Source: Microthyrium microscopicum (taxonomy: Eukaryota). Taken from it: a stretch of DNA of 64,000 nucleotides. The stretch spans positions 1 through 64,000 of the forward strand of contig MU004248.1 of the NCBI GenBank assembly GCA_010405405.1, given 5' to 3'. The position numbers and the translations under genes were made by a program. Positions 3,490 to 36,699 of the stretch are shown one piece after another. How positions within the stretch are numbered: the first letter of the stretch is position 1; every line of letters begins with the position of its first letter. The notes below the pieces were generated by a model that saw only the letters and a list, made by a program, of their open reading frames with translations, searched no databases and was not told where the DNA came from.

Positions 3490-3645
3490 TGTCACGGTCA
3501 CGGAGCTAATGTAGTAGTAGTATAGTAATATAATTAAGAAACAAACTTTAAGGTTTATTCTACTGCTACTCTAGTAGAGGATATATCTTTTAAGGATACA
3601 AGCTATATAATCTATACTTAGAGTTAGGGTTTAGTTCCTATAATA
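3490..3645 (-). repeat. 3' LTR of element A
   Basis: Colinear with 49502-49657; differences are C/T and G/A transitions. Confidence 0.93.
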
Positions 3646-12105: not shown

Positions 12106-15100
12106 TGTTATGGATCTACTACTATTGATCCTATTATAACATTATTAGCATCCTCTATTACGTAATGCTAAAGGCTTAGCGCCTAAGGATTATCTAGTAT
12201 AGCTTACCTATAACTATTTCCTACCCTCTCTCTTAGATTCTTTATATTAGTTTTCTTAAATTATATCTACTATTAGCTTATACCCTTACGCCTATAGGTC
12301 CCTAATATAAAACTAATACCTTATACTATTTAAAAAACAATCCTAATTTTTAGCGTATTAAAATCTAAAGATTTAATACGTTTACCTATATAAATATAAA
12401 ATCCTATTTTTAGATCTTAGTAGATCTAACCTACTAGCGTAGTAAATACATAAACTCTTAACCCTTAACCCTACTAAAAGCTTAGACTTCTAGCGTCTAA
12501 TTAAAGGGCTTAAAGGACCCTAGTTAACTTAAAACTTCTACTCTACTAAACTTATAGGTTAATAATCTTTCTTTACTACTACTACTTCTTTTTACTACTA
12601 TACTTATAGTAAGACTTTACTTATTCTACTATACTATAATAAGCCCTAAAGATAAACTATAATAAATTAAACCTCCTACTCTTTTCTTTAAATTACTTAT
12701 TATATCTTTATAACCTATCTATACTTTATTTTAAAACTTCTTAGCGCCTATACCTACTACTTATACTTACTCTATATTAAATCCTTATCTTACTATAAAA
12801 GACACTAGTAAGACTTATAAGACCTATTCTATATCTTATCTTTATAAGTAATAGCAATTAGAGACTTAGAATACTACTTAGTTTATAATTATACTACTTT
12901 ATATTTAGATTAATAGTAATAATAATAACGCTACGATAGAACTATCTTATAGCTAAGCTTTATGCTATAATTCCTTATACTCTTATTATAGCTCTATAGC
13001 TAAGGCACCTCTACTATCTAATGTCCTAAAAATTATTAAAAGTAGCTATATCTATAGCTAATTATAATTTTAAAATAAAGGCAAAGAGAAGGTATTCTCT
13101 ACTAATTTTTTAATTGCTATTCTTTAACTAGTAGACTAGGCCTAGATTAAAGAGCTACTCTTAAACTACTAAATATCCTCTTACCTTATTACCTACTAAT
13201 TAATTACTCTAAATAAGAAGAATTAAGTACTCTTAGTATAACTCCTCTATAAAGAAGTTACCTTCTAAGCCTAAGAAACTATTCTTTTAGATAGTATTAT
13301 TAAAAGCGTCCCTCTAGACTCTATACTTATACGTTATACTTAAGGTAACTTATATTTAGAAATTATTAAGACTTATAAAGGATTCCTTTATAGTATTACT
13401 ATATTACTAGAACTTTAGTTTAAATAGCTACGTAGTTATATTAAATTAATCTAAGTAGCTAATCTCTATATTTAAGAGACCTACGCCTAATTAAATAATA
13501 TAATAAATGCTTACTAATACTATAAGTAAAGTATTAAAGATATAACTAATAAACTTAATAACGCTATAGTTGTAGCTAATAAAACATACGTAAAGGTAAA
13601 CTAACTTTATAAATAACTTAATTATATAATTAAAGCTAACTATAAAGATAATAAATATGTCTTTTACCTAGAGAATACTTATAATATAAATTAATAGGAA
13701 CTTAATAAAATACTTAATAATATTAAATAACTATATACTTTCTATACTAAGAAGCGTAATAAGATTATAGCCCTTCGCCTCTAGAATAAAGATCTTAAGG
13801 ATTAGCTTAGTTAGTTTATATATAAGTCTAAAGAGAATATCTACTAACTTAACTCTAATAATAAGTAAGTAATACCTCCTCTTTATTAATAAGTCTCTTA
13901 TATTTAAATTAATAACCTAACCCTAGTAGTATCTAGATTCTTAGCTAGTAGTAAAAGCAAAAAACGTAAATAAAGTAATTTAGGCAAATACTCTAGTTAT
14001 AACCCTAAATAATACTCTATATAAAAACTCTATATTAAGGACTATCTCTATAATAAGTAAGCCTCTTTTCCTATAGAACTAGACGCTACTATTTAAGTAC
14101 GTAGTAAGACTCTTAATATTACCCTTAGATTTGTTAAAGACTATACTTAATATAAATTACTAAACTTATACTTTAATATAATAAAGTTCTAGGAGGATCT
14201 AAATTAATATACTTAAAAACGCAATACTTATAAAGATACTATTACCTAGTTATAAAATTCTTTAAACTAAATAAAGAAGAATAAGAAGCTTACTCTATAT
14301 ATTACTAAGTTTAATAGTAAAATTGCTAATACTAGCCTTATAGAAGTAGATAAGGTTACTTATTTTAAATATATAATTATTAAAGAGATTATATAGTGCC
14401 TATTCTTTTCTAAAGCTACTACTATTACTAAATATATTAACAAGTTATAAGTTATTAACTAAAACCTTAAATACAAAACTAATAATAGTAAGAAACTATC
14501 TAGTAGTTAGAATAATAATAATAGTAACTAAACTAATAACTAAATTAACTACGTACTACGCTATAAAGTTACTCTTTATTAATATCTAATATAAGACTAC
14601 TACTATACTTAATATAACAAATGAGATTATAATTATAAAGATAAGAACTTAAAGTATAAGGGCAAGCTAGCCCTCTCTAATTTTAATATCTTTATTAAAC
14701 TTACTAGTATTTATCTATAGTAAGATAATACCTAACTATAAAACCTAAACTTATAGTATAATTACTTATTAATATATAACGATTATTACTACTAGGACTA
14801 AGGAAACTAGACGCTTCTTTATAATGCTACGTAGAGAAGCTAAATAAAATAAAAGCGTATAATAAACAATAAAAATGTTAAATAAAGGCTATTATTAACT
14901 ACCTAAGCGACTCTAAGACTAAAAGTAATCCTATAGGCATAGCTATTATCTATATATTAGTAGCCTATATTCCTATTAACTAATTACTAAAATATTCTAT
15001 TCTAAAGATAAGCTAATAGTAGAGTACTACTAGCAATATCCTTATTAATAATAACGCGTATACTAAAACCAAAGTCCTAATTAATATAGATAATAATATT

Positions 15101-18100
15101 TTTAGTATTATTAACTTCTACTATCTTAAAATCTATAGCATTCTATTAGTAGAGATAACCTAACCCTACTACACTAAAATAACTAATAACTACGCTATTA
15201 CAAAGATAACCTATATAGTAGCTATTATATTACGTATTAGTATTTATCTTAAATAGATTCTCTACTTTATAATAGAAGTTACTAACTATAATATAATCTT
15301 TAGTAACCTATAGGTAAATAAATACGAAGTTATACTCTAAGGAGGCTAACATATATTAGGTTTCTACTCTAAGCATTATATAAGGTACTATATAGCTTTC
15401 TATTACTTAATTACTATTAACTATAAAAGTTAAGTAGTTATAAATAAATAATAAGAAAGAACTCCTAATATCTATATAGTATTACTATAAGTCTTTATAG
15501 CTATAATTAAGCATAAAGATTACTATTTTATAGCTCTTTACTAAGAAGACTTTAAAGCCTTAAAAGAAAAAGAAGACCCTAACCCTATCCCTTAGTAGAA
15601 CGTTGCTAGTATTACTATAATCTCTACTAAAGACTATACTAAATAGCGTAAAAAGCTTAACTATAACCTACTAACGTAAGAGGAATTACTAAAATTAATA
15701 CTACTAGAATTCTATTATTACGTCTTCTTATTTAACTCTTACTAAGCTAATAAACTACTACTATACTAATTAGGTTTTAATTATACTATTACTATTAACC
15801 TAAATATAAAAGCACCTATATATAAATCCTATAGTATATCTTACTAATAGGTATAGGTCATTAAGGAATATATTAAGAATATACTTAGAAAAGGCTTTAT
15901 TTAACTAAGTACCTTTTACTATACTATATCTATATTATATATTAGCAAACTAGGTAGTAGTATCTATATCTATATTAACTACTATAGACTTAATAAGATT
16001 ATACTAACTAACTAAAATATATCCTTACTCTTAATAGAAATATTAATAAAGATCTATAAAGCAAAATTCTTTTTATAATTTAACGTTATTACTATCTTTA
16101 ATAATATTTAAATTCACGAAGAAGATAAGTATAAGACTATGTTCTTAATATGCTATAAACTCTTTAAAACCTTAGTAATGCTATTTAGTATAATAAGATT
16201 ACTAGGAAGTTTTTAATCTTATATTAATAGCGCTATATATAAATACCTTAATAACTTTATTATAGTCTACCTTAATAACGTCCTTATTTAGAGTAAGACT
16301 AAAGAGGAGTATATTACTTATGTTTACCTAATCTTTAATAAGCTTAAAAAAGCTAGACTCTACCTTAATATTTCTAAATCTAAGTTTATAACCTAATTAG
16401 TTAAATATCTTAGTATTATTATTATACCTAATAGAATCTAAATAGATAAAAAGAAAGTTAATACTATACTTAACTAGTACTACCTTACCTTCCTAAAAGA
16501 CGTCTAGATATTTCTTAGCTTTATAAATTTCTATTACTATTTTATTAAAGGATACTTAAAAATTATTATACTACTTACTATACTAACTAAAAAGGATGCT
16601 TCTTTATACTTCCCTTAGAATAAGACTAGACCTAAGAAATAAGTATTTAACGCCTTAAAGAAGGCCTTTACTACTACCCTAATCTTTTATTATTTTAACC
16701 CTAATGCTAAGACTTAGGTTAAGACTAACGCCTTAGATTAAGTAATAGTAGCTATCCTTTTATAAAAAGGCGTAGATAGTAAGCTTTACCTAGTAGCTTT
16801 TCTCTCTAAAAAGATAACTCTAGTAGAATATAATTACAATATTTATAATAAAGAGCTTCTTATAATTATATAGGCGTTTAAGAAATAAGAACCTAAATTA
16901 TTTTTAACCTTTAACCTTATATAAGTTTTTACTAACTATCTTAACTTATGCATTTTTATATTAACTAAAAAGCTATTCTACTATTAAGCTTAATAAGTAG
17001 AGTTCCTCTTCTAATTCTAGTTTAAGATTAAATATTATAATAGTCTCTTTAACATAAAAGCAGATATACTAACTTAGAAATTATAAGATCTTCTAAAATC
17101 TAATAATAATCTATAGATTACTTAATAAATATAACTAATCCTTTCTCCTTATAACTTTAATACCTACTATAAAATATCTTACTCTTATAATACCTAATAT
17201 ACTATTAAGATTACTATCCTCCTTATTAATAGTAAATAACTTATAATAATTAAACTTACTATAATTATTACTAATAAAGTTAACATACTAACTATAAAAG
17301 GTAAGTTAATTAATTAACTAACTATAGAAAGTTCTACCCTAATCCTAGGTAAGCTAATTAATTACCTTAAGATAAATAGTGCGCTAGCTAACCTAAAAAT
17401 ATTATAGAAAGATATTATTAAGGCTAGCTAATTAGATAAGCTTATCTAAGTAATCTATAACTCTAAGGTAGTATAATCATATTATCTACTATATAGTACT
17501 CTAAAGAAGAATTTAATTAAATTTAGAGACTACTAAGTACTTACTAATAGCACTATTTAATATAGATAATAACTCTTTATCTCTCCTATAGAACGTCTCT
17601 AATACTATACTATTATATATATATATAATTATAAAGTTATAGGTTATAGTAGTATAGCTTCTATATACTAGCGCCTTTATTAATTTTACTTCTAGCCCTA
17701 TATAGCTAAGGATATAAAGTACTATATTAAAGTATATAAGTACGCATTTTCTAAACTAGTTAAGTAAAAGAAGTAGGATCTTCTTTACTTATTCTTACTA
17801 CCTAACTATACTTAGTCTAATATTTCTATTAACTTTATAGTTACTTTACTACCCTATATTTATCTTAAGACTATCTACTACTATATTATAATTATTATAA
17901 ATAGACTAATACGTACTTAATAGTTTATTCCCTTCTCTAACTTAAGTATATAGATAATAGTCTTTACGTTTCTTAACTAAATATAGAAGTATATAAGATA
18001 GCTTAACTCTATCCTCTCTAACTATAGTTTATAATTTATATTTATATTCTAGCAACGTCTCTATAAGCATATTAATATTATTATCTACCTAATTACTACT

Positions 18101-19525
18101 TAGTACTTATAAGGTAATAGTATTATAGAAATATTAATTATAGTACTAAAAGCTTACCTTAGATGCTTTATTAACTAGTAATAAAACGACTAGGTAGGAC
18201 TACTACTATTTATTAAATTTAAAGCTAACTATGCTATCTACGCCTCTATTAAGATAAGTCTTTTTTATATACTTAATAGTTATTTTCCCTAATTAGGATT
18301 AGAACTAATACCTTTAAAAGCTCTCTTAGGAACTAAGCTAACCTAGACTAAGTAATAGCTTACTAACTAGTATCTTTATACCTATACTAACCTCTATAAA
18401 TACCTTTATAAATAGATCTTATAGTCTACTACCCTTATAAAAGAGTAAGCTAATAAGACTTATTAACTAGTACTAGACCTTAAACTAGGCAATTAGGTAT
18501 AACTTAACGCCTACTATTATAAATCTCTCTAACTATTAAAGTCTCTTAATAATAAATCTACTAGACCTTTTAAAATTATTAAAAAGATTAATACTCTTAC
18601 CTATAAGCTAGAATTACTAGAGAAGATAAAAATCTACTTAGTCTTTTACGCTTAGCTACTCTACCCTATCCCTAAATATACTATAATACTCTAAGAACCT
18701 AATAACCCTTCCTTAATTATAAACGTAGATAATAATATAGAATAAGAATAGGTAGTTAACTATATTATTAATAGTAAGATAGGCATTATAAAGGGCTTTA
18801 GCAAAAAGAAAGTCTTATAGTATAAAGTTTAGTTTATAGGATAGAATAACTAGAACTATAACTCTAACTAGTAACTATAGTTAAATCTTAACTCTTACCT
18901 AAAGCTAGTTACTAAATATTATAACTAGAACCTTAATAAACCTAAACTATACTCTATATTTATAGACTCTTAAAAGAAGAAGGAAGAGGAATATAATTTA
19001 GACAGAATTCCCCTAGAATAGTAAAAGGATACTACTACGCATACCTTAATACTTAGTCTATAAATTAAAGTATTTTAAAGATATCTTAAGGTTTATTAAT
19101 ATCTCTTAATAGTTACTTTAGTAGGCTAGAGGGCAGCATAAAGAATAGGTACGTATAGTAGTTATATATAAAGGAAGGTTATTATCTTTGCTTTTATTGC
19201 TTTTATATTTTATATTTTATATCCTAAAAAGCGTTAGAATTATAGGACTATATAACTTAATTATAGATCTTATCTTTTTATAAGTTTTTAGCTTAGGAGC
19301 GCTAATCTTAGAGGGAAGAGTATTATTATAGATCTATTACTATTAATCCTATTATAATATTATTAGCATCCCCTATTACGTAATACTAAAGGCTTAGCGC
19401 CTAAGGATTATTTAGTATAGCTTACCTACGACTATTCCCTACCCTCTCTCTTAGATTCTTCGTATTAGTTTTCTTAAATTATATTTACTATTAGCTTACA
19501 CCCTTGCGCCCATAGGTCCCTAACA
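12106..19525 (+). mobile_element. Element D: full-length (7.4 kb) RIP-degraded chromodomain Ty3/gypsy inserted at the protease region of C
   Basis: 202-bp LTRs at 12106-12307 and 19324-19525 (TGTTAT..CTAACA); TSD GTTAA at 12101-12105 and 19526-19530. RT relic VYLNNVL at 16265-16285; PPT GAGGGAAGAG at 19311-19320. Confidence 0.95.
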
Positions 19526-22500
19526 GTTAATTTACTATTAAAGGTATTAAAAAAAGCTCTATAACTATATTTTAAGTAAAGAACTTTTAACGTTATCTTA
19601 AAATAATATTTTTATAATTTTCTAGCTTAGTATTACGTCTTTAATCTAAGCTTACTAGTTTTCTAATTCTATATTAGTAATATTATATAAATTATTATAA
19701 GAGTTATTATTTCTTAGCTAAGTAGTAGTAGCTCTTACTAGCTAGCTACTCTAAGGAATATTTAGAACGTTAGTAGTATTAGCCTAGAATCTACTAGTAT
19801 TATTTTATAAGTATCTACTTCTAATAGTATCTTCTTTACCTTATTCTTATTTATAACTAGCCTAGCTATAGGAGGAATTCTAACTTTTAGATAACGCTTA
19901 AGGTACCTATTTATAATTCTAAATTTTATAATTAGCTAAGTTATAGTAAAAATAAAAGTTATTTTACTTATAGTAGTTACGCTAGGCTTAGCTAGCTCTA
20001 ACCTAGACGCCTTTTATTATATCTAGGTCTTAATTCTTAGATAATTAACTCTACTAAGTACTTATTTTAGCGCTTAAGCCTTTTAGGCTATAATAATTTA
20101 TATAAGCTTAAACTATTTAATCCTAGGTCTTTAAAGCTTTTTAGGTAAAGATATCTAAATTATTAGGCTAGGAGTAAGTAATTAAAGCTATCTTAAGACT
20201 AGAATCTATAGTATTTTTTAAGAACTATATCTAGATAGAGGTAGCTTAAAATTATACTCTAGTATAAATAAGATTGTTAAGAATTAAACTTAATAGACTC
20301 TCTAAGATAGGCATTATGGCCTAAGTGCCTTAGCCTAATAGCTATTAGAAGCTAGCGAAGCTACTTCTTTAGCTTTAGTATATTCTATAGTTAAGAGAAC
20401 TAATAAGTTCCTAATTATTATAATTAGTAGCTAAGTATACTTCTAAGATAGCTTAGCTTATAGATAAACTACTCTAGCTTAAAAAGAAACCTTAAAGGTT
20501 CCTAGGTAATAAGATAGAGGCTAAGGAATTTCCTTATAATTTCTTAGTAATTACTCCTATCCTTATTTCTATATGCCTAATCTATTAAGTATCTTATAAC
20601 TTTTTTACTTACTCTATAACCTTAATTTTTAATATTATAATTGCTTCTTACTAATAAAGTACCTATAAAGCTTTTCCTTTAAAATACTATAATTAGTTAT
20701 AAGTAATAAACTAATGAAACCTAAAAGTAAGGCTCTTAAAGCAAAACTAGCTAGATTAAATCTAGCTATACTAAATATAGCTATACTAACTCTAATAGAA
20801 CTAAGTAGCTCTATAGATAATACTACTAATATAGAATAAGCTTATCTAAAACTAGTAATAAATATAAAAGAAACGCTAGAATAGTTATAAGCTAAAATAT
20901 AGTAAATATATAATATGCTTAAGATTAAATAACTTAAAGTAATAAAAGTAGCTTATAAACGTAAAGAACTTTACTTAGTTAAATAGATCTATAAATAAGG
21001 TTAATATAATGCTAGCCTAGCTATTTTAGCCTATATTAAATATAATAGCTCTAAATTAGCTTATAGTAGTAATAAATTATAAATATATAAAGCTAAAAGC
21101 TTATAAAAGTATAAGGATTAGGTCTTTAATATAACTAATATACTTACTATAAAGAAATATAAGGAAGACTTATACTTAGTAGTCCTCTAAGCCTATAATT
21201 ACCTTAATAAGGAGGTTATATAACCTACTTAGAATAATTATATTAATTTCTAGACCTAGTTAGCTAAATTAGACTAATATAAACTTACGTAGGCCTTTAT
21301 AGAATAATAGGCCCTTAAACTCCTTAGTTTATTTATTAAGAGGTATTATAAGGCCTTTTAGAGCCTCTTAACTACTATAATAGGGAAAAAGACCTCTTAA
21401 AAATACTTTAATAAGCTTATGCTTCTCTTTTATAAGTATAAGATTAATAATATATTAATTTACTTATTATTCTTTAGTAATAAACTATTTACTTACCTTA
21501 GAAATAATATAATCTTTAACCTAGACTATATAATTAAGATAGCTAAAAAAGCCTTATCTTAATATATTTTAAAGCACTTAAGACCTATTAGTAACTAGAA
21601 AATACTAACTACTTTTAAGAAAGATACTAGAGATAGTAAATTCTCTAAATAGCGTTTAACATCTATAAATCTAAAGAATAAGACTTAATAAAGTTTCTAA
21701 AGAAATAAGTTAAAAAAGTCTAGACTAAGCCTTTTTAATAAGGCTTTAAAGCTAAATAAACTAAAGAGTAACGTAACGCCTAAAATTAAATAGCTATTTT
21801 CTAGTAATCTTAGTAAAGGTAAGTACTAGAACTATACTAAGATAGGCTATATAATTTATAACTATCCTAACCTAAAGCTAAAAGAAATTAAAGGAAAAGA
21901 CTAAGCTATAAGGTAGCTAACTAAGATCTTATAGCTTTTATTATAAATAATTTAGTCCTTAACCTCTTTAGTAACTTTTATAAAATTATTATTACTTAAG
22001 TCTTAGAAGTAGTAAGGAATAAGAAGATTTTAAATAAAGAGGTATACTAATTAAAGAAATTATACTAAATTATTCTATAAGGAACTACTTAGAATTAAGT
22101 AGGCTAAGATTATATGCTATAGAGTATAATAATAGATAGTAAAGCCTATTTTAATATTATAAACTATACCTTAGCTAAGAAGCTTTAATTAGAAATATAT
22201 TATCTCTTAGAAGAGTTAGCTAAGTACTTAAATAGTATGCCTATAGCTATTTATAGAGTAGTAATTACTAAAGTTATAGTAGTTAACTCTAATAAGATCC
22301 TAAAGACTAATAAAGTATTATTTTGTATTATAAACTTACTATACTATATAATTATTATAAAGATGCCTTAGCTTAAAAACTAGAACCCTTTATTAAACTT
22401 TAAGGCTAAGACTTTATTCTTTATTTATTTAGAAGATAACTATTATAGTAAGATTAGCTTTATCTCTCTAGAGGAGTTACTCTAATTAAGTTAAGATAGA

Positions 22501-25500
22501 TCTACTTAGCTCTTTAAGTATTTAGTAGGTTTATTAGACTATATTAGTCTATAAGACTTATTATATTACTATAAGAAGCTTATAGAGGCCTTTAGTAAGG
22601 ATAAAGTATAGAATTTAGTAGAATATAGTCTATAGAACCTAACTATTAATCTTAAGCTAAGTATAAGTATACCTTACTAGCCTATTTATAGCCTATTAAA
22701 AGCAAAACTAGTTATTCTATATAAATACTTTAAGAGAAATCTTAAGAGGAGATTTATTTATAAATCTTAGTCTTCTACTAAAGCTCTAATTATTTTTATA
22801 AAAAAAAAGGATAGTACTTTATATCTATATATAGACTATAAAAGCTTAAATAATATTATAGTTAAGGACTATTATACTCTACTACTAATTAAAGAGTTAT
22901 TAGACTAACTATTAAGAGCTAAGCTCTTTATAAGCCTAGACCTTTATAAAGTATACTATTATATTTATATTTATACTAATAATAAGTAGAAGATAGTATT
23001 CTAAACTAAATATAAGTTTTTTAAGTACTAAGTAATACTCTTTAAGCTTACTAATACTTTTACTACTTTCTAAGCGTATATTAACTAAGCTTTATATAGC
23101 TTTATTAATATAACTTATATTATCTACTTTAATAATATTTTTATCTTTTTTAAGAATAAAGAAAATTATATTAAATATATAAAGAAAATACTTAAAAGAT
23201 TTATTAAGTTTAAGTTATACGCTAAGCTATTAAAGTATAGCTTCTATATAGACTAAACTAAGTACCTTAGGTATATTATAACTTTAGATAGTACTATAGT
23301 AGAGCTAAAATAGATTATAATAATTATAAATTAGCTAATACTACGTAATATATACTAAGTAAGAGAGTTTATTAACTTTATAAATTACTATTAATATTTT
23401 ATTACTAACTTTTCTTATATTACTTTTCTATTAAACTTTTTAACTAAGAAACTTCTAGGGTAAGCTTTAAAAAGCTAATAGCTATATAATAAAGAATTAG
23501 TTCTTATTAATCTCTTTTCTAAAGCTATTTAATTTTTTAATAACTTAAAAGCTACCTTTACGCGTATATTAATCTTTACTTACTATAATCCTATATTAGA
23601 GACCTATCTAGAGATAGATACCTCTAGGTAAGTAATCTATAGTATTTTAAGCTAAAAGTAAACTAAGCTAAGCTAAGAAGGCTAATAGCAACTTATAGCG
23701 TTCTACTTAAGAAAGCTATTAGGATTTAAGAGTTGCTATAAGACTTTATAGTAAAAGTTCCTAGCTATTATTAACTTTATAAGAGTCTTTTATAAGTACC
23801 TATATAGTATTCTAAAGTTTTTAGTCTTAATAAATTATATAAATCTTTATTTACTTAATATATCTTAAAATATCTCTACTATATATATAAGATAGGTAGA
23901 CTTTCTTACTAAGTTTAAGTTTAATATTAAGTATTATTTAAAGAAAATAAACCTTATAAATAGATTCTTATAGAGACTAGACTACGTCTCCTTAAGTAAT
24001 ATAGAATAAAAAAGAATTATAGATACCTTATTAAATCTTATCTAAGATAAATTATAACTATCTAAGGCTTCTAAGCTAGATAAAGACTTAGTTAGGTTTA
24101 TTAACGCTTTAGTTATATCTATTAGTACCTTATTATAGTACTTAAGAAATAATTCTTAGAAAATAGATATTATTACTACGTTAAATATACCTAATAGCCT
24201 TTTTATTAAGCTAATAAAAGATAAATAAACCTATCTATAAATAGAGGTTACTATAGAGGATAGTAAAGTCTAAGTCTTTTAACGTTTTTATAACAACTCT
24301 TTAGAAAGAGGCTATAAAGGCTAACGTAAGATATTAGAGAAGATTTAATACTATTATACTTAGGATAATATTAATAAAAATATCTAAAAGTACTACGTAG
24401 CCTATTTAGAGTATAAATAAAATATATTTATTAAATAAAGCTAAAATAAGCTTCTTTTATCTCTACTAGTACTAATAGCTCCTTAAGAAGATATTATAAT
24501 TAATTTTATTACTAACTTACTCTTAAGCGTCTTCTAAGGATAGCTATATAACTCTATTATAGTAGTTATCTATAAACTAACTAAAATAGCTTACTACGTA
24601 CTCTATTATAAAGATATAGACGTAAATAATCTTACTAAGCTTTTCTTATATAAGGTAGTATAACTTTATAGCGTACTAAATATAATTATATTTAATAGAG
24701 GCTCTATATTTATCTCTAAGTTTTAGAATATATTCCTTTACTACTTAGGGATCTAATAAAAGCTATTTACTATATTCTAACTCTAGATAGATAAGTAAAT
24801 AGAGTATTAAAACTAAAAGATTAAGTACTATTTATATATTTATTATAGCTAAGAGTAAAATAATTAAGCTAAAAAGCTTAATTCTACTAAGTTTATATAT
24901 AATAATAGTATATATAGCTTAACTAGTATTACTCTATTTATAATATATATAGGTAGGTACTTATATATACTAGAAATATCTAAAGAGTACTTAATAGATA
25001 CTATTCTTAACGTAAAGGAACTAGTAAAATATATTTTATTTCTTTAGAGAGTCCTTTAGGCCTATCTAGAGAACGTTTAAACTCTATAAGCTAAATACTA
25101 TAATAAAGGCTATAAAGACGTTACCTTAAAGGTAAATAACTAAGTTCTACTTAATATAAAGAATATTAGAATAGCTAAGTCTAAAAAAAAACTAGATATT
25201 AAGTATATAGGCTTCTTTAAAGTAATAAAAGTTATTAATTATAATACGTATTATATTAATCTACTTAAAGACGCTCTAGTTTATAATATCTTCTATATTT
25301 CTTTATTATAATAATATATATCTAATATACATTTCTTATAATAAATAGTCTTACCTTAGAAAACCTTAAACTTTAAAAAGACTAATTACTATAAAGTTAA
25401 AGGCGTAATTAAATATAAGGTTAATAAAGATAGTACTTATTACTATAAAGTAAAGTAGAAGAACTACCTTATATTTAAAGTAAGCTAAGAACTTACTAGT

Positions 25501-26199
25501 AATTTCTTTTTAGTTACGCTAAAGTACTACTAAGAGAAGTTAAAGAAAAAGAATATCTTCTTAGCTAAATTAATTTTAATAGGAGTAACTAAATATAACT
25601 TAGAATAACTTAATTTAGATAAACCTTATTTAGAGCCTAAGAAGCTAAGGAGATATTTAAAAAAGCCTTTAGCACCTACTAATTCTATACTAGCTAAGAA
25701 AAGGCTAAGTAGACTAAAATAATTATAATAAGACTTAAGATAAGCTTCTTTTTATAGAGAGGATAAGTATAAAAGTATAATTACCCTATAGTATATATAA
25801 ATATATAATAATAATTTATCTTACTTATAATTAAGATAAGCCTATTTAGATAAAACTAAATAGTACTTAGATAGTACTATTATAATACTTTAGAATAAAT
25901 AGGTTCCTATAGATATATATATAAATATAGTTTAAACGAAAAAGACTTAGAGAAAATTTAGAACTAAATAGAAAACTAATTTTAAACCTAAACTTAAAAC
26001 TATTAATATTACTTTAGCTTTACTTATTAGCTTTTAAAAAGGTACTCTTTAAATACTTTAAAATAATAATTCTAGGTTTATAGAGATATACTCCTAGGTA
26101 CTATTTAGGTTTATAAGAAAGGACTTAGAAATTTAAGAAAGTATTTTATTAAAAGAAACTATCTTATATTATTTATATAAATTAGTTTAAATAGAACCT

Positions 26200-27950
26200 A
26201 ATAGCTACTAAGTACTAATAAATAGCTTATAATAAACCTAAAATATAACTAACCTTACCTATTAGATACTAAACGTATTAACCTAATGCTAGATATATTT
26301 ACTAGATACTATATTTACTCTTTAGACTCTTTAGACTCTTTAGACTCTAAATTATTATCCTTAGAATTAATCTAACTTATTATAACTAAATAGTAATAAA
26401 GAACTACTTACTTATTTATTCTAAGCTTATATTTATTAATCTAGCTCTAAAGGGTTATAAACTAACCTATATTAAAAGCCTTCTTTTTCTTTTTAGCGCT
26501 ATTAATTTATTAAGAAATAAGTATCTTTATAACGTTAGTAAGGTTGCTAATTTAACGTAATAAAGTACCTATAACCTAGAATAGAGTTAGTTAGAATCTA
26601 AGTAATATAATTAGAGTACTTATATTCTTTTAGCTACTATTTATAAGTAGTTTAAATTTATAATAATAGGTATAGAGGTTATTATAGCGCTTAATATAAG
26701 TAATATTAATAATAATTCTAAGTAAAGCTACTTTAGAGTAATAAGTAGCCTTCTTAGTTATAAGAACCTTCTTACTATTTCTATAATATACTAGTATTAT
26801 ATAGATACTATTATATTTATCTTTAGCAATACTAGAATATAAAGGAAAGATATTATTCGTAGCATTAATATAGATATACTTATTTATATTAGTTTAAATC
26901 TAAGTATAATAAGAAAGTTTACTTATGTTTAGATAGCTTCTATAATATCTTTATTAGTAATGCGAACTACCTTTTTAGTATAAAGAAGCTAATCTATGTT
27001 ATACTTACTTAAATTGCTATTATAGGTTTGCTAGTAAAGTATATAGACCTTTATTACGTTATAACGCTTCTAAAGAAGGTCTTTAGTAATACCCTTCTTA
27101 TAAGAGATAACTTAGGAAATAATTAGTAATGATTAGATTTAAATTAAATTAATTAGGAATAACTTACCTTAAGATACTATTAATAAGACTTTATAGTCTT
27201 ATAGATTATATAGTAGTAACTATCTTAAACCTTAAAGGCTAAGGCGTAGTCCTTAGAAGCTATATAGTACTAATCTTTTAGATTAGTATATAGAAAAGTT
27301 TTAGCGTATACTTTAGTATATTACTAATATAAATTAAGTATAAGAAACTATTTAATAATTAACTTAGCCTTATTCTTATATAGAATAAACTTATCTATAT
27401 TAGATAGTTTTATCTTATTATTATTAAAGTTATATAGAAGATATTTACTATCTAATTAACTATAATTAATTAATACGTTATAAATAAGGAAGGTCTAGTA
27501 TAATTTAAACTAAGCCTAAGCCTTATTAATACGTATAATACTATTATTATATATTTACTTTGCGTTAGGCTAGAAAGGTTTAGATTTATTATTATAATTA
27601 TACTTAGGAGCCTTTCTCTTCTTTTTAGCTTAGGTAATATTCTTTTTAATCTCTTTAGATTTAGAAGGCTTTAAAGAGAAGTAGCCTAAACTTAATAGTT
27701 TAATATAGTTATTATTAGTATTAATTTAGGTACTATTAATGAATTTAATCTTATTAGTTACCTTTTTAATAGTATTAGTATTAGTAGAATTAGCTAGTTT
27801 TATAACGTTAGTAATTAAAGTCTTTAGTAAAGTAGTAGTATTCTTAAAGACTTTAGAGGTATCCTTAGAGACCTTAGAGGCGTTAAATAGAGATAGACTA
27901 AGTCTATTTAAAGCCTTATTAGCTTCTACTTTATTCTTTATAGTAGCTAT
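26200..27950 (-). pseudogene. Putative RIP-decayed intron-containing cargo gene antisense to element E
   Basis: Minus-strand frame from 27950 reads IATIKNKVEANKALNRLSLSLFNASKVSKDTSKVF... with only TAA/TAG stops. Donor-like GTAAG motifs at 27167 (ACTAAT branch, AG at 27111), 26411 and 26258. Boundaries approximate. Confidence 0.5.
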
Positions 27951-28819
27951 TAGAGAGAATAGATATAAAAGGATATAAAGTATACTAAGTAGATTTATAA
28001 GGAAGCTATTAGTAAAATATTAAGACTACTAGCTAGGACTTATTTTTATACTATAGCCTTATTTATAAAAGTTAGCTTTACTTAGTTAGTTAGGGTTTAC
28101 TTAAGTATATACCTTAATTTTATAAAAGTAGGATAAAGAAGAATTAAAAGAAGTATATAATTATAAAATTAAATATACCTTATTTAATACTCTTCTATCT
28201 AATTAGGTTAGTAGAGAATAAATACTTACTTTATTAAGTACTTCCTATTAAGGAAAGCTTTAATATTAATTCTTATTATAAGTAAAGATTCTAAAGAAGG
28301 AAGTTGCTCTTAGTAGGTAATAACTTATAGATTAGGTAGGCTTAAGGTAATAGCCTAAGGAAACTTAAAAATGCCTAAGTTCTTAATAAACCTAGATAAA
28401 CTTAAATAAGAACCTAATAGTAACGTTTAGCTTTATAAATTATTATTTAAGGGGTACTTCTTTAAGCAATGTTTAAAACTAAAAATAGGTTTACTAGAAT
28501 TTATTAAGATTATTATTTAGCTAGCTAGATAGTAGCTAAGTAGTTTATACTATTATGATATAATATATCTTAAAGTATATTAATACTACTAGAACGTAGT
28601 TAACTCTTTAAAGACTTATAAGGACGTTTAGGTCCTTATTAAGGAGATAATATTAGGAATTAAACCTAATAGACTCTTTAAAATAAGTATTATAGCCTAA
28701 GTGCTTTAGCCTAATAGCTATTAGAAGCTAGTAGAGCTACTTCTTTAGCTTTAGTATATTCTATAGTTAAGAGAACTAATAGGTTCTTAACTATTATAAT
28801 TAGTAGCTAAGCGTACCTT

Positions 28820-31800
28820 TGTAATGATTCCTTACAGTGCTAAGTATTGAGAGAGATCTTAGTGTTACAAGATCACGCGCTAGACCTGAAAGGGTTAGCG
28901 CGTCCGAGGTTCTGCCGAGCGGACTTACTTCCCTCGCAGATCCGTAGTAGTTCTAGATCTTCTTCCTCTCTTCCTTGTACGTAGATTCTTAAATACTAGC
29001 TAATTATCTACTTAACTCTAAGTCCTACTACTCGTTATATAATCTACGTACTATAAAAACTGTTGCGCGCTTATACTACGTATTAAAAAGTATTATTTGG
29101 CGTAGGTAATATCCTATTACTTTCTATATAGGCAATATCCTATTACACTTTACGCGTAAGACTCTAAAATTTTGAGCCCTACTTTAAAATCTAATAATAC
29201 TAAAACTAATTAGCGCGTTAGAATTCCCTAATGCTAATTATCCTAATTAGTATTAGACTAATAAAAGGTCTAAGCTTTAATTGCTCCTTAATTACTTATG
29301 TATAGGAATACTAAATTTATCTTTCTTACTATAATCCCTCTAAATACTACTTTTAAACTAAAATTATTCTTAACTCTAAATCCTTTCTATAGCGTTTATT
29401 AATTAAAAACTTTAATAGCTAGTAAGAATCTATTACTAATATAAGTAACTAAGTTCCTTTACTACTATAAGGTAGACGTAGAGTAAATAGCTATCTATAC
29501 TAATCCTCTTTACTCTAGCGTAAAGCTAACTAGCCTAATTGTTATTAATTCCTATCTTCTTTACGTTGCTTATTAATTTTAAGTTGCCCTCCTACTATGC
29601 TAAATATTAGCTAGTTAGATACTTAAGATACTATATAGATTTTATAATCTATAAAGAAACTACCTACACGTAACTAGGAACTATAGAAATTATTAGTAAA
29701 CTTTAATAAAGATAATAATAACTAGCTACTTAGGTTATTATAAAAAGAAAGTAAGGAGAAAGCCCTAATCTATAATAATAAAGAAGTAAGATCCTTAAAA
29801 TAGTATATTAAAGACACTACTTATAAAGAAGACAAGGAATTTAAAAGTAAAGAGGAAGATAATATTACCAAAATCCATAGAACCTTTAAAGATAATACTA
29901 GTTTACTATAAGAAATTATTAAATAATTAGTAGTTATATAAAAGAATCTAGAATTAGTAAACGTCCCTTTAATATTTAAAAGCTACTATATAGTTACTAT
30001 GAACTTAAACTATATTATTAATCTCCTAGTAGACTATAAGCTATTATAATTCTAAGCTATAGTATACTAAGTATTACCTAGTTAAGAAGGCTAAAAGCTA
30101 AAGCCTACCCTACTAATAGCATAAAAAACCTTAGAGGACTTAGAACTACTATACTATAATTACTTTATTATCTAATCTAGCTAAGGCCTTACTTATACTC
30201 TAAAAGGTAGCCTAGACCTAGATAAATTTATTATAATATTATTTAACTACTACTTAAAGATATAGGCTATATTCTACTTTTATAACGTAGAGTAAGATAT
30301 AAATATTATCTAAGCTAAGTAATTAAATAAAGAGAAAGCCTATAGCGCCTAGCTAGAGGAAGACGCTAAACAAAACTAGAATCTAGTAAATAATCTTATA
30401 AAAGTAAATAAAGACTATTAAATAGAGATTTTATAGCTAAATACTAAACTTTAAGATAGTGACGTCTCCCTTAATAAGAGAGTTACTACTTATAAAACTA
30501 TAAATAACCTCTAGTATGATAATACTCTCCTAAAAAATATAGTTATATTCTAATCCTCTAAGCTAAATTAGTTCTAAACTATACTTTAGTAGAAAGTTAA
30601 TAAAGTTATAGTACTTTAAGTATAAGTTAAAGCTCTCTAAAAGTCTAAGGTACCTAAGAAGATAAATAACCCTTACGCTAATCTTAATAAGAACGCTAAT
30701 AATAACTTATTACGCTCTATGTTAGTTAGTCCTAATTTAAACTTAAATTACTAGTCTCTATATAGAAGTTCTATACCTTACTAATTTACTCCTAATTCCT
30801 TAATATACGCTATAAATAAAGGTTTTAAGAAATAAAGAGAAAAGCCTACTAAGTTTAATAAGAAGGATAAAGATAAGTACTATGTTTAGAAAGCTAAAGC
30901 GCTTAATTACCTTAATAAGAACGCCCTTATATACAATATAGAGTTATCTAAGATTTATCTAATTTAGGAATAAATAGATAAATAGGCCTTTGCTACTATT
31001 AAGGAGCAAAGTAAATAAGATTCTTATAACCTATATCTTTACTTAAAAGAGGTATAGGTAGACCTAGACTATAAATATACTACTAAGGATAGTTTTATAA
31101 AGGCTAAAGCCTAGCTTAAAATACTAAAAGCTTAAATAAAGGCATTAGAGAAGGTAGAAGAATATCTTACCTATTTCTCTTCTAATTCTTATAAAGTAAG
31201 ATTATTTAACGAAGAGAAGATTATTAAACTACGTAACCTATTACTAAAGCGTTTTACTAATTATCTACTATTTATTAAACTAGACTCTTACTCTAAATTT
31301 GTTAATAACCTCTATAAGGTATTTTACTAAATAAAATATTAACCTTCTATAGAAACTAATAATAATAACTACTTTAACTTTAATAGCTTTTATAGAGGCT
31401 ATAAAGGTAGAAGGCGTAGAAACTATAATAGTAGTAGTAGTACCTATAATAATACTACTAATGATAATAATAAAATTATACGTTTATAAGAAGTCTTTTA
31501 CGTCCTATGAAAGGATAACTATTATATCTAATGTAGAGAATAAGGATATAGCTATTAGAAAGTAAACGCCCTATATATAAGTAAAGATCTTTTTTCTAAT
31601 ACTAAGATTTGTACTAAAGTTGCTTATATAGCTACTATCTTTACTATAATATTTATATAACTTAATTCTAATCTTTTACGTACTAATAATAACTTAGAAA
31701 ACTAAAGGCTCTTTTATATAGATATATAAAAAAGCTAAATAAGCAAGAAGTGCATAACTATTAAAAAAAGAAGAAATACTAAGTATATATATTAGACCTA

Positions 31801-34800
31801 AAGGACGAGCTAGAAACTATTCCTACTACTAACAAAACATTAAGATATTAAGCCTATATATCTAACCCTAACTTAGATAATAAGGAAGGGGATAAAGACG
31901 CGCTAAATTATAACTTTAACTTTGACCTAGAGCCAAAAAATCTAGAGCCTATAGAGAAGACTTAGTTAAAATAATTAACTATAAAGAAATAAACGTTTAA
32001 TAAAGAACCTATCCTTACTAAAGAATAAATCTAGAGCATAGTTTAAGATATAATTAAGCGCCTACAAAAGCTAGTAGAGCTAGAGCTAGCAGTAATTTAA
32101 ATCTTCTTAGTATCTATTACTAATAGCTTCTATCTAAGAAATATTTTAGAGATACTCATAGTTAGCGATTAGTAGACTACTAAAAGTATAGCTTATTTAC
32201 TAAAAGCAAAATATTACGTCTAAATTAATATATTAATTAATATAGGAAGTAAAGCAATAAGTATTATATACTTAAAATTTATTTACTAATATAATATTCC
32301 TATAATAAATCTATCTACTTCTTAAGTAATATAACTTACTAATAGCAAAGCTATTACTAAGGTAGATAAAGCTACTATAGTAAACGTTTACCTTAGTAAG
32401 CATATTAAGCAAATCTGCTATTTCATTATAGACGTTGCTAATTATAATATTATCTTTAGAAATCTATAGATAAACCTTTATGAAGTTACCTTAAAGAAAA
32501 GCAAAAAAGAGATCTACTTTAACTTCGCTTATTACTTAGTAAATTACTTACTCTATAGCTACTTAATATTAATAGATTATAAAGGCTATTCTTATAACCT
32601 TACTAACTCTCTACTAGATAAAAAAGATATTACTATAGTTAGCATAGTAGCCTTTATAAAAATATTAAAATAAGGGTAGAAATTTAGCAAAGTATAGCTA
32701 AAGGATTTAGATAAAGATAAAAATAAAGTACTACTAGATTCCTCTATACCTAAGACGCTAAAAGAGAATATTACGATTAACCTCTCTAAGATATCTTTAG
32801 AAGATTATAAAAAGTAGTATAAGAAGTATAATTAGCCTCTATTAAGTTATAAAGAAATTTTAAAGAAACTATTAAAGGAATTCTATTGCTATATTAATAT
32901 CTTTAACCTAAAGCTAAGTAATAATTTAGCACTACACTATAGCGAATAGGACTACTCTATTAATATTATCTTTAATACTACTATTCCTAAATAAAGATAT
33001 AATACTCTCTTATATTAAGAATTGCTAGTTATTAAATAGTATATTAATTAGATACTTAGCCGTAATTAAGTTTAGGCTAGTAAATCCTACTTTGCCGCCC
33101 TAATGTTATATATATATAAACCTAAAGATAGTATCTATGTCTATATTAATTACTAAGGCCTAAACGAAATAACCTAGAAGAACTATAACGTCCCTTTATA
33201 ATTACTAGAAACCTTAGCTAGAATATACTATATAAAATTCTTCTTAAAATTTAATATTATTACTACTTTTACTTATATTTAAATTAAACTAGGAGATAAG
33301 TATAAAACTACGTTCCTTATCTATTACAATCTCTATAAATTTAAGGTTATATTATTTAGCCTTATAGGAGCTTTAGGCACCTTTTAAGCGTACTTAAATT
33401 ATATCCTTATAGAATACCTTAATAACTTCGTTACTAGCTATATAGATAACCTCCTAGTCTTTAGTAAGAGCTAAGATTAGTATACTACGTATATCTACCT
33501 TATCTTAGAGGCTATAGGTAAAGTAGGCCTCTACCTTAATATTAATAAATATAATTTCTTTACTAAATAAATTAAATACCTTAGCCTTATTATTACTACT
33601 ACTAGCATTAAAATAGATTTAGATAAAGTTAAAAGCGTTATTAAGTAGGCTTAACCTTTATTAATTAAGGACGTATAGGCATTCTTAAGCTTTACTAATT
33701 TCTACTACTATTTTATTTATAGTTACTTCTAAACTACTACTTCTCTTATTACCTTTACTAAAAAAGATACAATAGTAATCTTTTTATAAAATCTAGACGG
33801 ACCTAAGGACTACGTATTTAAAAAGCTAAAAAAGAACTTTACTACTATACTTATCCTTTACTACTTTAACTATATAAAGAAAATGTAGTTAGAAATAAAT
33901 ACTTCTAATTAGGTATATGCTATAGTGCTCTTCTAAAAGGATAAAGAAGGCAAATTATAGCTTATTGCATTCTTATTAAAAAAGATAAGCCCTATTAAGT
34001 ATAATTATAACATTTATAATAAAGAGTTATTAGTAATTATCTACGCCTTTAAAGAATAGGAACTAGAGCTATTCTCTATAGTAGATATAATTAAGGTATT
34101 CTTAAACTACTAGAACTTATAAACCTTTATAATAACTAAAAAGTTATCCTACTAATAGGCAAGATAGGCTAAATTTCTATTCTAATTCTACTTCTAAGTT
34201 TAGTATTGCTCTAGTCTATTTAATAATAAAGCTAATATACTTACTTACTAATTATAAGATCTACCTTAGAATAATAATAACCTACAAGTCTCTTAGTAAG
34301 TCTAACTGCTATTATTCCCTTACTAGTTTAATACCCCCTATGCTATTAAGTTAGCCTTATTATTAATTAAACTAGTAGCACTATTAATTATATACTTAGC
34401 TACTATTATTTAAAATAAGTTAAATATCTTAACCTCTATAAAGGAGTTAATAGATCCTATAAAAAGGTTAGTTAGTAACAAAAGACTACCTAGGGAGAAG
34501 TTAATAGAATCCCTAAGAGATAATAAATCCCTAAATTTTAATAGCAATTAGTTTATATAAGATATAGTTTAAGAGTCTATTAGTAATAAAACTATAAAAG
34601 CAATCTAATAGGCTAAAGCAAACTACTAGACGTATTTACTCTTTAATATACCTAAGTAAGAAGGTATTAAGTTAGATAACTATGTAGTTACTATAGATAA
34701 TATAATTCTATACTATAACTATATCTTTATTCTCTATAGTAAACTACGTTACTAAGCTTTATTCTTTACTTATAGCTATAAAGTTATAGGCTATAAAGAA

Positions 34801-36699
34801 GTAGCTATAATCTATTATTACTTATAAGAGACCTATTAGTAGTCTAGAATATTATAAGATATAAAGATATATATAAAAGGTTATAAATACGTCTTTACTA
34901 AACTAGTATGATAAAAGAAGTAAAGATTCTTAAGAAGCTTCCTCTTACTAGAACGCGCTTAGTTAGATATCTTTATTAACTTTGCTATTTTATTACTATA
35001 CTACTACTACTAAGAAGTAATCTATTACTATGTTATAGTTATTATAGATTATTATATAAGAATACGTCGCTTTATTCTACTACTAGACCTCTCTATAGAA
35101 TCTATAGTTTTAGTATTTATTAACTATATCTAAAGATTAATAAGTTAGCCTAAAAGTATCCTTTTAGATCGTAGTAGCTAATTTACCTTAGCCTTTTAGA
35201 AACGTTTATATAAACGTGTTAGTACTATTCTTTACCTTAGTATAGCTTTTTACCTAAAGATAGACGGTATTATAGAAATCTCTATTATAACCCTAAAGTA
35301 GTATTTATAAGCCTTTATTAATTAGGATTAAGATAACTAGGTTGCTTTACTACTATTTATGGAATTTATAGTTAACTTAGTAGTAAATATAACTATAGGA
35401 ATTATGCCCTTCTAGGTATAAAATAGCTTTAATCCTTAATTAGGCCTTAAAGCTAATTACTCTATTCTTTACTTATTCTACGCCTCTATTACTACTAATA
35501 AAGAAGAAGCTAATGTAGATATTATATAATAAGGCTATACTAATATATATAAATACTTTATAGAGTAACTTACTTAGGCTTAGGCATAATAAGCTAAGTA
35601 TACTAACTATTACTATTAAGCTATACTAAATCTATAGCTAGGTAATTAAGTAAGATTAGATACTTGTAATTACTCTACTTCTTATTCTTTAAAAATACTT
35701 AATAGTAAAAGCTTTAAACTTTTCTATATTATTAAAAAGATTAACGCTATTATATATAAGCTAAATCTACCCTCCTTAATAAAAATACATAATGTCTTTT
35801 ACGCTTAGATCCTTTACTATATTACTAATAATACTAAACTTCTAAAATATTTAAATCCCCTTCCTATAATTATAGGTAAGACTAAAGAAACTATAAAATA
35901 GTAAGTAGATATAATTATTAATAGCTATTACAAGCCCTAGACTAAGAAAAAGACGTTATAGTACATAATTAAATTTATAAGCTATAATATAGTAGAATAG
36001 TATGATTAGTATAACGCTAAGAACGCTCTAGATTTAATTGTAGAGTTCTACGCCTATTACCCTAATAAGCTAAGCCCTTACCCCTCTTAGATCTTACTAT
36101 AGCTAGAGCCTACTAAAGATAATAACGTTATGTATAACTTTAATGGTGTCCCTACTAATTAGTACTAAAAAGTTTACTTTCTTTATATTATTAATACCCC
36201 TATTTAGCATAGATATACTAGCCCTTAAACCACTAGGACTTAAAAACTAGAGTATTCTAAAGATATCTTAAGGTTCGTTAATACCTCTTAATAGTTGCTT
36301 TAATAAGCTAAAGGTTAAAATGCTCTAAATATCTAATTGTTAGCATTATATTATAGAAGGAATTTATTAGACTAGACTGGATTAGACTAGACTAGACTAG
36401 ACTAGACTAGACTAGAATAGACTAGGAGAGTAATAATAAGCTAAGACAGCCTAGAGAGCTATTCTAAAAGAAAGGGTCGTGTAATAATTCCTTATAGTAC
36501 TAAGTATTAAGAGAGATCTTAGTATTATAAGATTACGCACTAGACCTAAAAGGGTTAGCGCGTCTAAGGTTCTACTAAGCAGACTTACTTTCTTTATAGA
36601 TCCATAGTAGTTCTAGATCTTTTTCCTCTTTTCCTCGTACGTAGATTCTTGAATACTAGCTAATTATCTGCTTAACTCTAAGTCCTACTGCTCGTTACA
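28820..36699 (+). mobile_element. Element F: full-length (7.9 kb), innermost and apparently least RIP-mutated chromodomain Ty3/gypsy, related to D in pol
   Basis: 220-bp LTRs at 28820-29039 and 36480-36699 (TGTAAT..GTTACA); 4-bp TSD CCTT/CCTC. RT relic YIDNLL at 33439-33456; PPT AAAAGAAAGGG before 36480; TTAGAAAACTAA at 31694-31705 resembles a RIPed GGAAAAC gag-pol slippery site. Confidence 0.95.
36366..36425. repeat. (ACTAG)n pentanucleotide microsatellite in the 3' UTR of F
   Basis: About 12 units; one unit reads ACTGG, suggesting a pre-RIP (ACTGG)n. Confidence 0.9.

Follow-up and report, generated by a model that had tools for sequence, protein, structure and literature searches.

The window analysed here, a 64-kb stretch at the start of Microthyrium microscopicum contig MU004248.1 (G000:C19:1-64000 within a 37.1-Mb fungal genome), is filled from about 3.5 to 50 kb by nested, AT-rich repeats mutated by repeat-induced point mutation (RIP). 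Two of these repeats are Ty3/gypsy chromoviruses, elements D and F, whose paired long terminal repeats (LTRs) are 91% identical in D (transitions making up 17 of 18 differences) and 88% identical in F (27 of 27). Their pol products are 32% (D, over 1333 aa) and 37% (F, over 1372 aa) identical to that of an un-RIPed relative from the same genome, family H. Both elements carry in the 3' untranslated region (UTR), between pol and the polypurine tract (PPT), a motif of about 69 nt that stands outside the LTR and occurs once per element, and that is very probably a selected RNA structure.

A first-pass annotation of the window had aligned positions 19068-19132 with 36250-36314 at 56 identities in 65 gapless columns, with all 9 differences being transitions, and recomputation returned the same values. 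The corresponding BLAST match spans 74 nt (19059-19132 and 36241-36314) at 85% identity (E = 1.8e-16). Because RIP makes C-to-T and G-to-A changes only, we scored the comparison of D with F by transversions and gaps. Across a 4109-column alignment of pol and UTR, 7 windows of 65 nt were free of both, all of them at the motif, and the best window elsewhere scored 5. Transversions were identified in 0 of 66 columns of the motif and in 188 of 899 columns (21%) of 3' pol (P ~2e-7); by these sequence counts, the motif is more conserved between D and F than reverse transcriptase and integrase. The flanking UTR does not align, as the annotation had stated, with 26-27% transversions in the 60-nt flanks and 25% in shuffled flanks. 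To call the LTRs unrelated was too strong: they are barely alignable, but D and F are homologous chromoviruses with matching pol, and the LTRs are deeply diverged (local score 83 against 59.8 ± 7.9 for shuffles, with a maximum of 85.5 among 300), with one short box in common. This box, TTAGCGC...CTAAGG, lies in U3 of both elements (~19385-19405 and ~36551-36571), recurs as a variant in H and is a candidate promoter element. Nor were the two motif copies quite identical before RIP, as had been suggested, with one outer-stem position being G in 5 of 8 F copies and A in all 19 copies of the D-type cluster.

We identified the motif in seven Ty3/gypsy chromovirus families of this genome (D, D', F, F', G, H, and J), with one copy un-RIPed, and its core lies 55-106 nt past the pol stop and about 190-240 nt ahead of the PPT across the seven. 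A RIP-tolerant core pattern had 55 matches in the genome against 0 for the reversed control, and genome DNA searches with the D and F copies gave 40 scored matches each. Clustering of the matches by their flanks assigned 8 to F, 22 to F' (including a duplicate segment), 22 to D and D' together, and 1 to G (later 8). The duplicate is a 3' segment within an F' copy (L026:2034-2575) that includes a second copy of the motif. The unmutated H copy, with a diverged motif 97 nt after the pol stop, was reached through a chromodomain search. A covariance model was built from 27 motif copies, including those of D and F, which score 93 and 97 bits as members of the training set; it matched behind the end of pol in each of the best 30 of 122 pol-tail loci. 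Family J, which is not in the model, accounts for 17 of these 30 (E 1e-6 to 5e-3), and its motif has 1 additional A in the loop and 1 base fewer in the 3' bulge. In a tree of purine/pyrimidine-coded 3' pol, F with F' and H with H2 were each supported at 98, D with D' against the rest at 100, and H with J weakly at 76, with the deeper branching order not settled. A local exchange limited to D and F, which the annotation had named as grounds for refuting its claim, is excluded by the occurrence of the motif in seven families. To date, the motif is known from this genome alone, where it is confined to one clade.

Both stems and the 8-nt loop that had been proposed from D and F hold, with the un-RIPed copy folding the inner stem with an 8-nt loop and further families carrying compensatory changes; the covariation on which the proposal had been made to depend is present. 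The outer stem has 6 bp in D, D', F, F', and G and 3 bp in H and J, and the inner stem has 2-4 bp beneath an apical loop of 8 nt closed by U.G (9 nt in J). Between the stems lie a bulged (Y)G, A-U and C-G pairs, a 1x2 loop, U-A and C-G pairs, and an internal loop of 0-3 pyrimidines per side. There is next to no variation in the apical loop, UUCRUCAA(A)YG, or in two strands, GACAUC and GACAGU; the strands pair in short helices that include a small asymmetric loop and a bulged G. An alternative apical 2-bp stem with a UU bulge reached pair probabilities of 0-0.04 only, the 8-nt loop being preferred, and loop-to-bulge and 5'-linker pseudoknots were on inspection not conserved across families.

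Pair types were counted over 89 distinct copies. At the innermost position of the inner stem, D, D', F, F', and G have G-C, and H and J have C-G. At the second, D (11 of 17), F (5 of 8), and G (5 of 8) have G-C, F' has G.U (20 of 21), H has C-G (6 of 8), and J has U-A (17 of 17). At the third, D, F, G, and H have A-U, 8 of 21 F' copies have G.U (A-U in the others, as RIP would give), D' has Y-G, and J is unpaired. In the outer stem, one pair reads U-A in H and J where the D/F group has A-U or G.U, and the pair adjacent to it is G-C or A-U depending on the family. Family G has a paired deletion of 2+2 nt that keeps a perfect helix (8 copies), and the remaining unpaired cells are of the kinds that RIP produces. 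An A-U pair in D' was dropped as covariation, a less mutated D' copy (L148) having G.U at that place. Since a family-fixed G.U would be A-C on the other strand, the sense strand is favoured.

Comparison of H with D shows a change of purine/pyrimidine class in 7 of the 41 core columns; 6 of the 7 make 3 predicted pairs, a result matched by random placement in 0.05% of 200,000 trials (P ~5e-4). The changed pairs all lie inside stems drawn from D and F alone, with the exact dot-bracket written after seeing H. Predicted partners paired in 83.7% of cases over 27 copies (24-55% for slid partners) and in 80.8% with one copy per lineage (8 rows; 24-47%), and the covariation score over the 8 rows was 0.437 (0.054-0.192). 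The count of pairs changed on both sides did not exceed that of shuffles (26 and 67 of 500), and other shuffle results are inflated by the relatedness of the copies. The paired changes, the deletion and the constancy of the unpaired letters argue strongly for an RNA structure under selection.

Although the pol frame of F can be read by eye through the motif, a coding remnant is excluded by the stop ahead of the motif in the un-RIPed copy, by frames that differ between D and F, shift by one within the motif in J, and lose 4 nt in G, and by the conceptual peptide, which was found in 0 of 184 related proteins. The pol tail and the stop context are alike in all families. A captured host non-coding RNA or coding fragment found no support either, with no Rfam match and no conserved reading frame; the best Rfam hits, both to unrelated families, had E values of 2.7 (F region) and 6.2 (un-RIPed copy), so the match to a known host RNA that the annotation had listed as a way to refute its claim did not appear. 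The stop position, the frame shifts and the compensatory stem changes all support its description of a conserved structured non-coding element between pol and PPT.

The un-RIPed relative in family H (L069/L075) has LTRs identical over 226 bp and gag and pol frames of 754 and 1443 aa that occupy different frames. The Pfam domain order of its pol is protease (PR), reverse transcriptase (RT), RNase H (RH), integrase (IN), SH3, and chromodomain, the Chromo domain being detected at E 2.4e-5 with 24.6 bits (cut-off 25.1) and above the cut-off in a separate search. The copy at L075:96-7760 (G000:C2:1270095-1277759) has no RIP signature and is a very recent insertion, with sibling copies heavily mutated. 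RIP in this fungus strikes CpG strongly besides CpA and depends markedly on context (L136-L143). In 7 mutated H copies, retention was 7% for CpA, 20% for CpG, 77% for CpC, and 0 of 91 for TCGA; TCGA, CCGA, and CCGG were kept in 0 cases, and ACGT, ACGC, and GCGC in 48-60%. A second unmutated chromovirus-like pol frame of 1267 aa (L064; G000:C2:941387-944551) belongs to a distant clade and is without the motif.

Table 1. Coordinates of the motif and of its host elements (window numbering unless a locus is given)
Feature	Position	Strand	Remarks
Motif copy in D	19064..19132	+	outer stem 19075-19080/19116-19121; inner stem 19088-19091/19102-19105; loop region 19092-19101
Invariant strands, D motif	5' 19080-19085; 3' 19108-19113	+	possible short closing stem at both ends
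Motif copy in F	36246..36314	+	outer stem 36257-36262/36298-36303; inner stem 36270-36273/36284-36287; loop region 36274-36283
Invariant strands, F motif	5' 36262-36267; 3' 36290-36295	+	
Element D, RIP-mutated Ty3/gypsy chromovirus	12106..19525	+	LTRs ~12106-12307, 19324-19525; target-site duplication GTTAA
Element F, RIP-mutated Ty3/gypsy chromovirus	28820..36699	+	LTRs ~28820-29039, 36480-36699; inserted within another LTR
pol stop of D, inferred	19022..19024	+	after chromodomain and DG-x-P-x-W-like tail; context as in un-RIPed copy
pol stop of F, inferred	36166..36168	+	
Polypurine tract of D	19310..19320	+	~230 nt past start of motif core
Polypurine tract of F	36466..36476	+	~205 nt past start of motif core
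5-nt tandem repeat	~36369-36425 (F); L069:1960-2020 (H)		GGACC/GGACT/GGCCT type in unmutated copy
Primer-binding site of D	12309..12319	+	exact 11-nt complement in own LTR, 19462-19472; Tf1-type self-priming layout
Primer-binding site of F	29041..29051	+	exact 11-nt complement in own LTR, 36637-36647

The host elements combine a chromodomain integrase with a primer-binding site (PBS) complementary to their own LTR, as in Tf1-type self-priming chromoviruses. The PBS of D, F, and H has an exact complement of 10-11 nt in the own LTR, the layout described for Tf1 and Tj1 (in excerpts of PMC4600332). The PBS sequence differs between D and F, each being matched by its own LTR, and F and H have the same one. 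A 5-nt tandem repeat upstream of the PPT was identified in F, F', G, H, and J and is missing from D and D'. In every motif-bearing family, pol ends behind the chromodomain in an acidic tail with a DG-x-P-x-D/E-W-like ending (e.g., 36130-36165 and 18990-19021). This ending was found in 1 of 120 database relatives (P0067) and may mark the clade elsewhere; the nearest database pol proteins are at most 54% identical. Element F interrupts the LTR of another element (28653-28816 and 36696-36894), whose partner LTR is at 20277-20634, and more nested LTR pairs were identified in the window at 3504/49516, 4450/44473, and 6674/38020.

Outside the clade, no hit of the covariance model was below E 0.16, whether in the remainder of the window, the distant L064 frame, or the pattern matches from metagenomes and IMG/VR. 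Pattern searches of IMG/VR gave 0 and 5 matches and those of JGI metagenomes 6, which lie in prokaryotic DNA and lack the stems; scored with the model, the 9 distinct loci all stayed at E 3 or above. Among sequencing runs, none from RNA was listed as a match, and a contig of a third organism contained sequence downstream of the motif only. Protein-guided locus searches gave 0, 2, 29, and 0 loci, and in these 31 distant chromovirus loci (27-41% identical), several of which end at or before the 3' UTR, the model had no match below E 2.4. A set of 29 contigs in prokaryote assemblies (L107-L135) encodes eukaryotic Ty3/gypsy integrase with chromodomain, likely as contamination.

Several observations weigh against a selected structure or limit how far it can be read. 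Every motif copy comes from one genome. The fold is weak: the 41-nt core of the un-RIPed copy has -6.5 kcal/mol, the copy folds no better than its shuffles (z +1.27 and +1.36), and its inner stem has a probability of 0.95-0.98 alone, 0.04 in a 66-nt context, and about 0.55 in a 120-nt context, the last two values being the highest for any core pair. All three pair changes between H and D fall on a single branch, and the families share ancestry; the covariation therefore amounts to about 7-8 events, not hundreds. Over 66 nt, the H motif shows 17% transversions relative to the D/F group, about the rate of pol, and the near-identity among D, D', F, F', and G could thus partly reflect exchange. 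In the intact element, long-range pairing gave no outlier, with best windows of -45 to -38 kcal/mol in a scan run without a control, and no cyclisation complement stood out.

The motif is best read as a selected cis-acting hairpin in the sense (genomic or messenger) RNA of one self-priming fungal chromovirus clade. Stems that vary but stay paired would present invariant short strands and a loop at low intrinsic stability, an anatomy to be expected of a protein-docking hairpin. Across families, Gag is, by sequence comparison, far more diverged than the motif (H Gag has no match in D and is 30% identical to that of F over 270 aa), which argues for a host protein or a pol enzyme as the partner. 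The Gag comparison is itself eroded by RIP, and RT or integrase would suit the argument from a conserved partner equally well, two further points that count against a host protein. A partner more conserved than Gag would most likely be a host RNA-binding factor that assists the export or stabilisation of the long unspliced genomic RNA, or its routing to particle assembly. Such help is plausible for a long, unspliced RNA whose translation would mostly end at the gag stop. We consider it quite possible, if short of probable, that the hairpin is a sense-RNA docking site for a conserved, probably host, protein aiding export or stability of the unspliced genome.

A credible but less likely partner is a protein of the element itself, with Gag or nucleocapsid recognising the hairpin for packaging, or RT or IN doing so for reverse transcription and strand transfer close to the PPT; loading would take place in cis directly after the end of pol translation. 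The same structural evidence applies, the motif is clade-restricted (it was not found in the other gypsy elements of the window, in L064, or in the 31 distant chromoviruses), and its distances from the pol stop and the PPT are constantly short; packaging and localisation of Ty3 depend on UTRs or POL (excerpts of PMC4974528 and PMC11381356). However, Gag is barely alignable between families whose loop letters hardly vary, the dimer and packaging signals mapped in Ty1 and Ty3 in the same excerpts are 5', and neither the loop nor the 3' strand has a notable complement in the RNA of the intact element. An upstream enhancer of 3'-end processing or stability, restricting polyadenylation to the 3' LTR or protecting the tail in the manner of an element for nuclear expression (ENE), is improbable. 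It would suit a motif present at the 3' end only, outside the LTR, adjoining a U-rich tract after the stop codon and showing, in 6 of 7 families, a small internal loop of pyrimidines, but that loop has just 2-3 nt per side, includes C, and is deleted in G, the un-RIPed motif has no run of U longer than 3, and the motif lies more than 300 nt upstream of the inferred R region.

Passage of the segment between families by template switching in co-packaged RNAs, under little or no selection of its own, seems slightly less probable still. The motif differs by 0-3% (transversions) among D, D', F, F', and G against 12-23% in pol, and H is similar in both, as exchange would predict. In the sister pairs F/F' and D/D', however, the flanks have diverged like pol (9-14%) and the motif by 0 and 3%, and the paired changes, the paired deletion, and the invariant strands in H and J would be left unexplained. 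We judge an element acting as DNA, either a cluster of transcription-factor sites or a hairpin formed by the plus strand while it is single-stranded in reverse transcription, to be unlikely: although the invariant letters hold two GACA half-sites about 28 nt apart and DNA tolerates G.T pairs too, covariation in the stems would be superfluous for a double-stranded site, and in G the spacing differs by 4 nt. Least likely of all is a new self-cleaving ribozyme or nuclease-blocking fold. Many unpaired nucleotides are invariant, and the minimum free energy structures of F and F' allow an extra pairing of the 5' linker with downstream sequence, but this pairing is not kept in D' (L148) or H. The catalysis raised in the annotation is unsupported: the fold is weak, small self-cleaving ribozymes (hammerhead, hepatitis delta virus [HDV]-like, twister, hairpin, pistol, and hatchet) had no Rfam match, and hammerhead, twister, and hairpin core patterns were absent from 5 copies scanned, with one HDV-loop-like 7-mer on the minus strand only and no core on the sense strand. 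Cleavage would presumably also remove the PPT and the R end needed for replication.

Of these readings, docking of a host protein is the one that we carry forward. A more far-reaching version, which we hold to be doubtful, would make the motif the first equivalent in fungi of the retroviral transport elements, a small hairpin recruiting a host export or stability factor (e.g., of the Mex67 pathway) and possibly passed between families as a module. If true, loop conservation would have outlasted that of RT and integrase in a new RNA family. How unspliced LTR-retrotransposon RNA is selected for export, protection, and packaging is poorly defined even for Ty3, whose cis sequences are "not precisely defined" (excerpts of PMC11381356), and the literature searched contained no comparable mapped RNA signal for chromoviruses of filamentous fungi. 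The motif offers a compact candidate with sharp boundaries, a fold backed by covariation, and one natural copy free of mutation, and it shows that selected RNA structure can be read from RIP-ruined repeats through changes that RIP cannot make.

Provisionally, the motif is apparently undescribed. A literature search, with subscription literature and repeat databases outside its range, gave no description of it; the main text of the fungal motif survey of Li and Breaker makes no mention of transposon, LTR, or gypsy (PMC5640933), and excerpts of a ribozyme review name no ribozyme in fungal LTR elements (PMC6765202). Among known systems, the host elements resemble Tf1/Tf2 in their PR-RT-RH-IN-SH3-chromodomain order, in gag and pol occupying different frames, and in a PBS complementary to the own LTR, whereas such a 3' UTR motif was not found in the literature searched or in the 31 distant relatives. 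With Ty3 and Ty1, the likeness is that of a Ty3/gypsy 3' UTR with replication signals, which there include the 3' part of a bipartite PBS, CYC3, and palindromic dimer sites (excerpts of PMC4974528 and PMC11381356). Here, in contrast, no tRNA bridge is needed because the layout is self-priming, and the loop is not a working palindrome. A kissing-loop dimer site of the kind of the HIV dimerisation site (DIS), Ty1 PAL, or Ty3 PAL6 was rejected, with loop self-duplexes of -0.6 and +0.2 kcal/mol equalled or bettered by 68% and 93% of 500 shuffles.

The annotation had likened the motif to the retroviral constitutive transport element (CTE) and RNA transport element (RTE), and the likeness stands for position at the 3' end of an unspliced RNA and for position only. 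Each is a structured cis element of an LTR retroelement, outside or abutting the LTR, to which we add a proposed docking of a host factor. The CTE contains two repeated internal loops, whereas the fungal unit has about 69 nt, unrelated flanks, and one copy per element, and so has neither the length nor the repeated loops of a CTE. That of Mason-Pfizer monkey virus is a 234-nt stem-loop that in vertebrates binds NXF1/TAP and no viral factor (excerpts of PMC12789967). The ENE, a triple-helix element of plant and fungal LTR retrotransposons, occupies in Evade/Copia93 the same place between the open reading frame and the 3' LTR (excerpts of PMC12501189). Its U-rich internal loop has no equivalent here: the motif has no U-rich tracts, its internal loop is CUU/UUC in the un-RIPed copy, 2x2 in D and F, and deleted in G, and its conserved letters lie in the apical loop and the GACA strands. 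On the best reading of these comparisons, the motif would share the role proposed for CTE and ENE at the same position, and appears CTE-like in that role while being itself neither a CTE nor an ENE.

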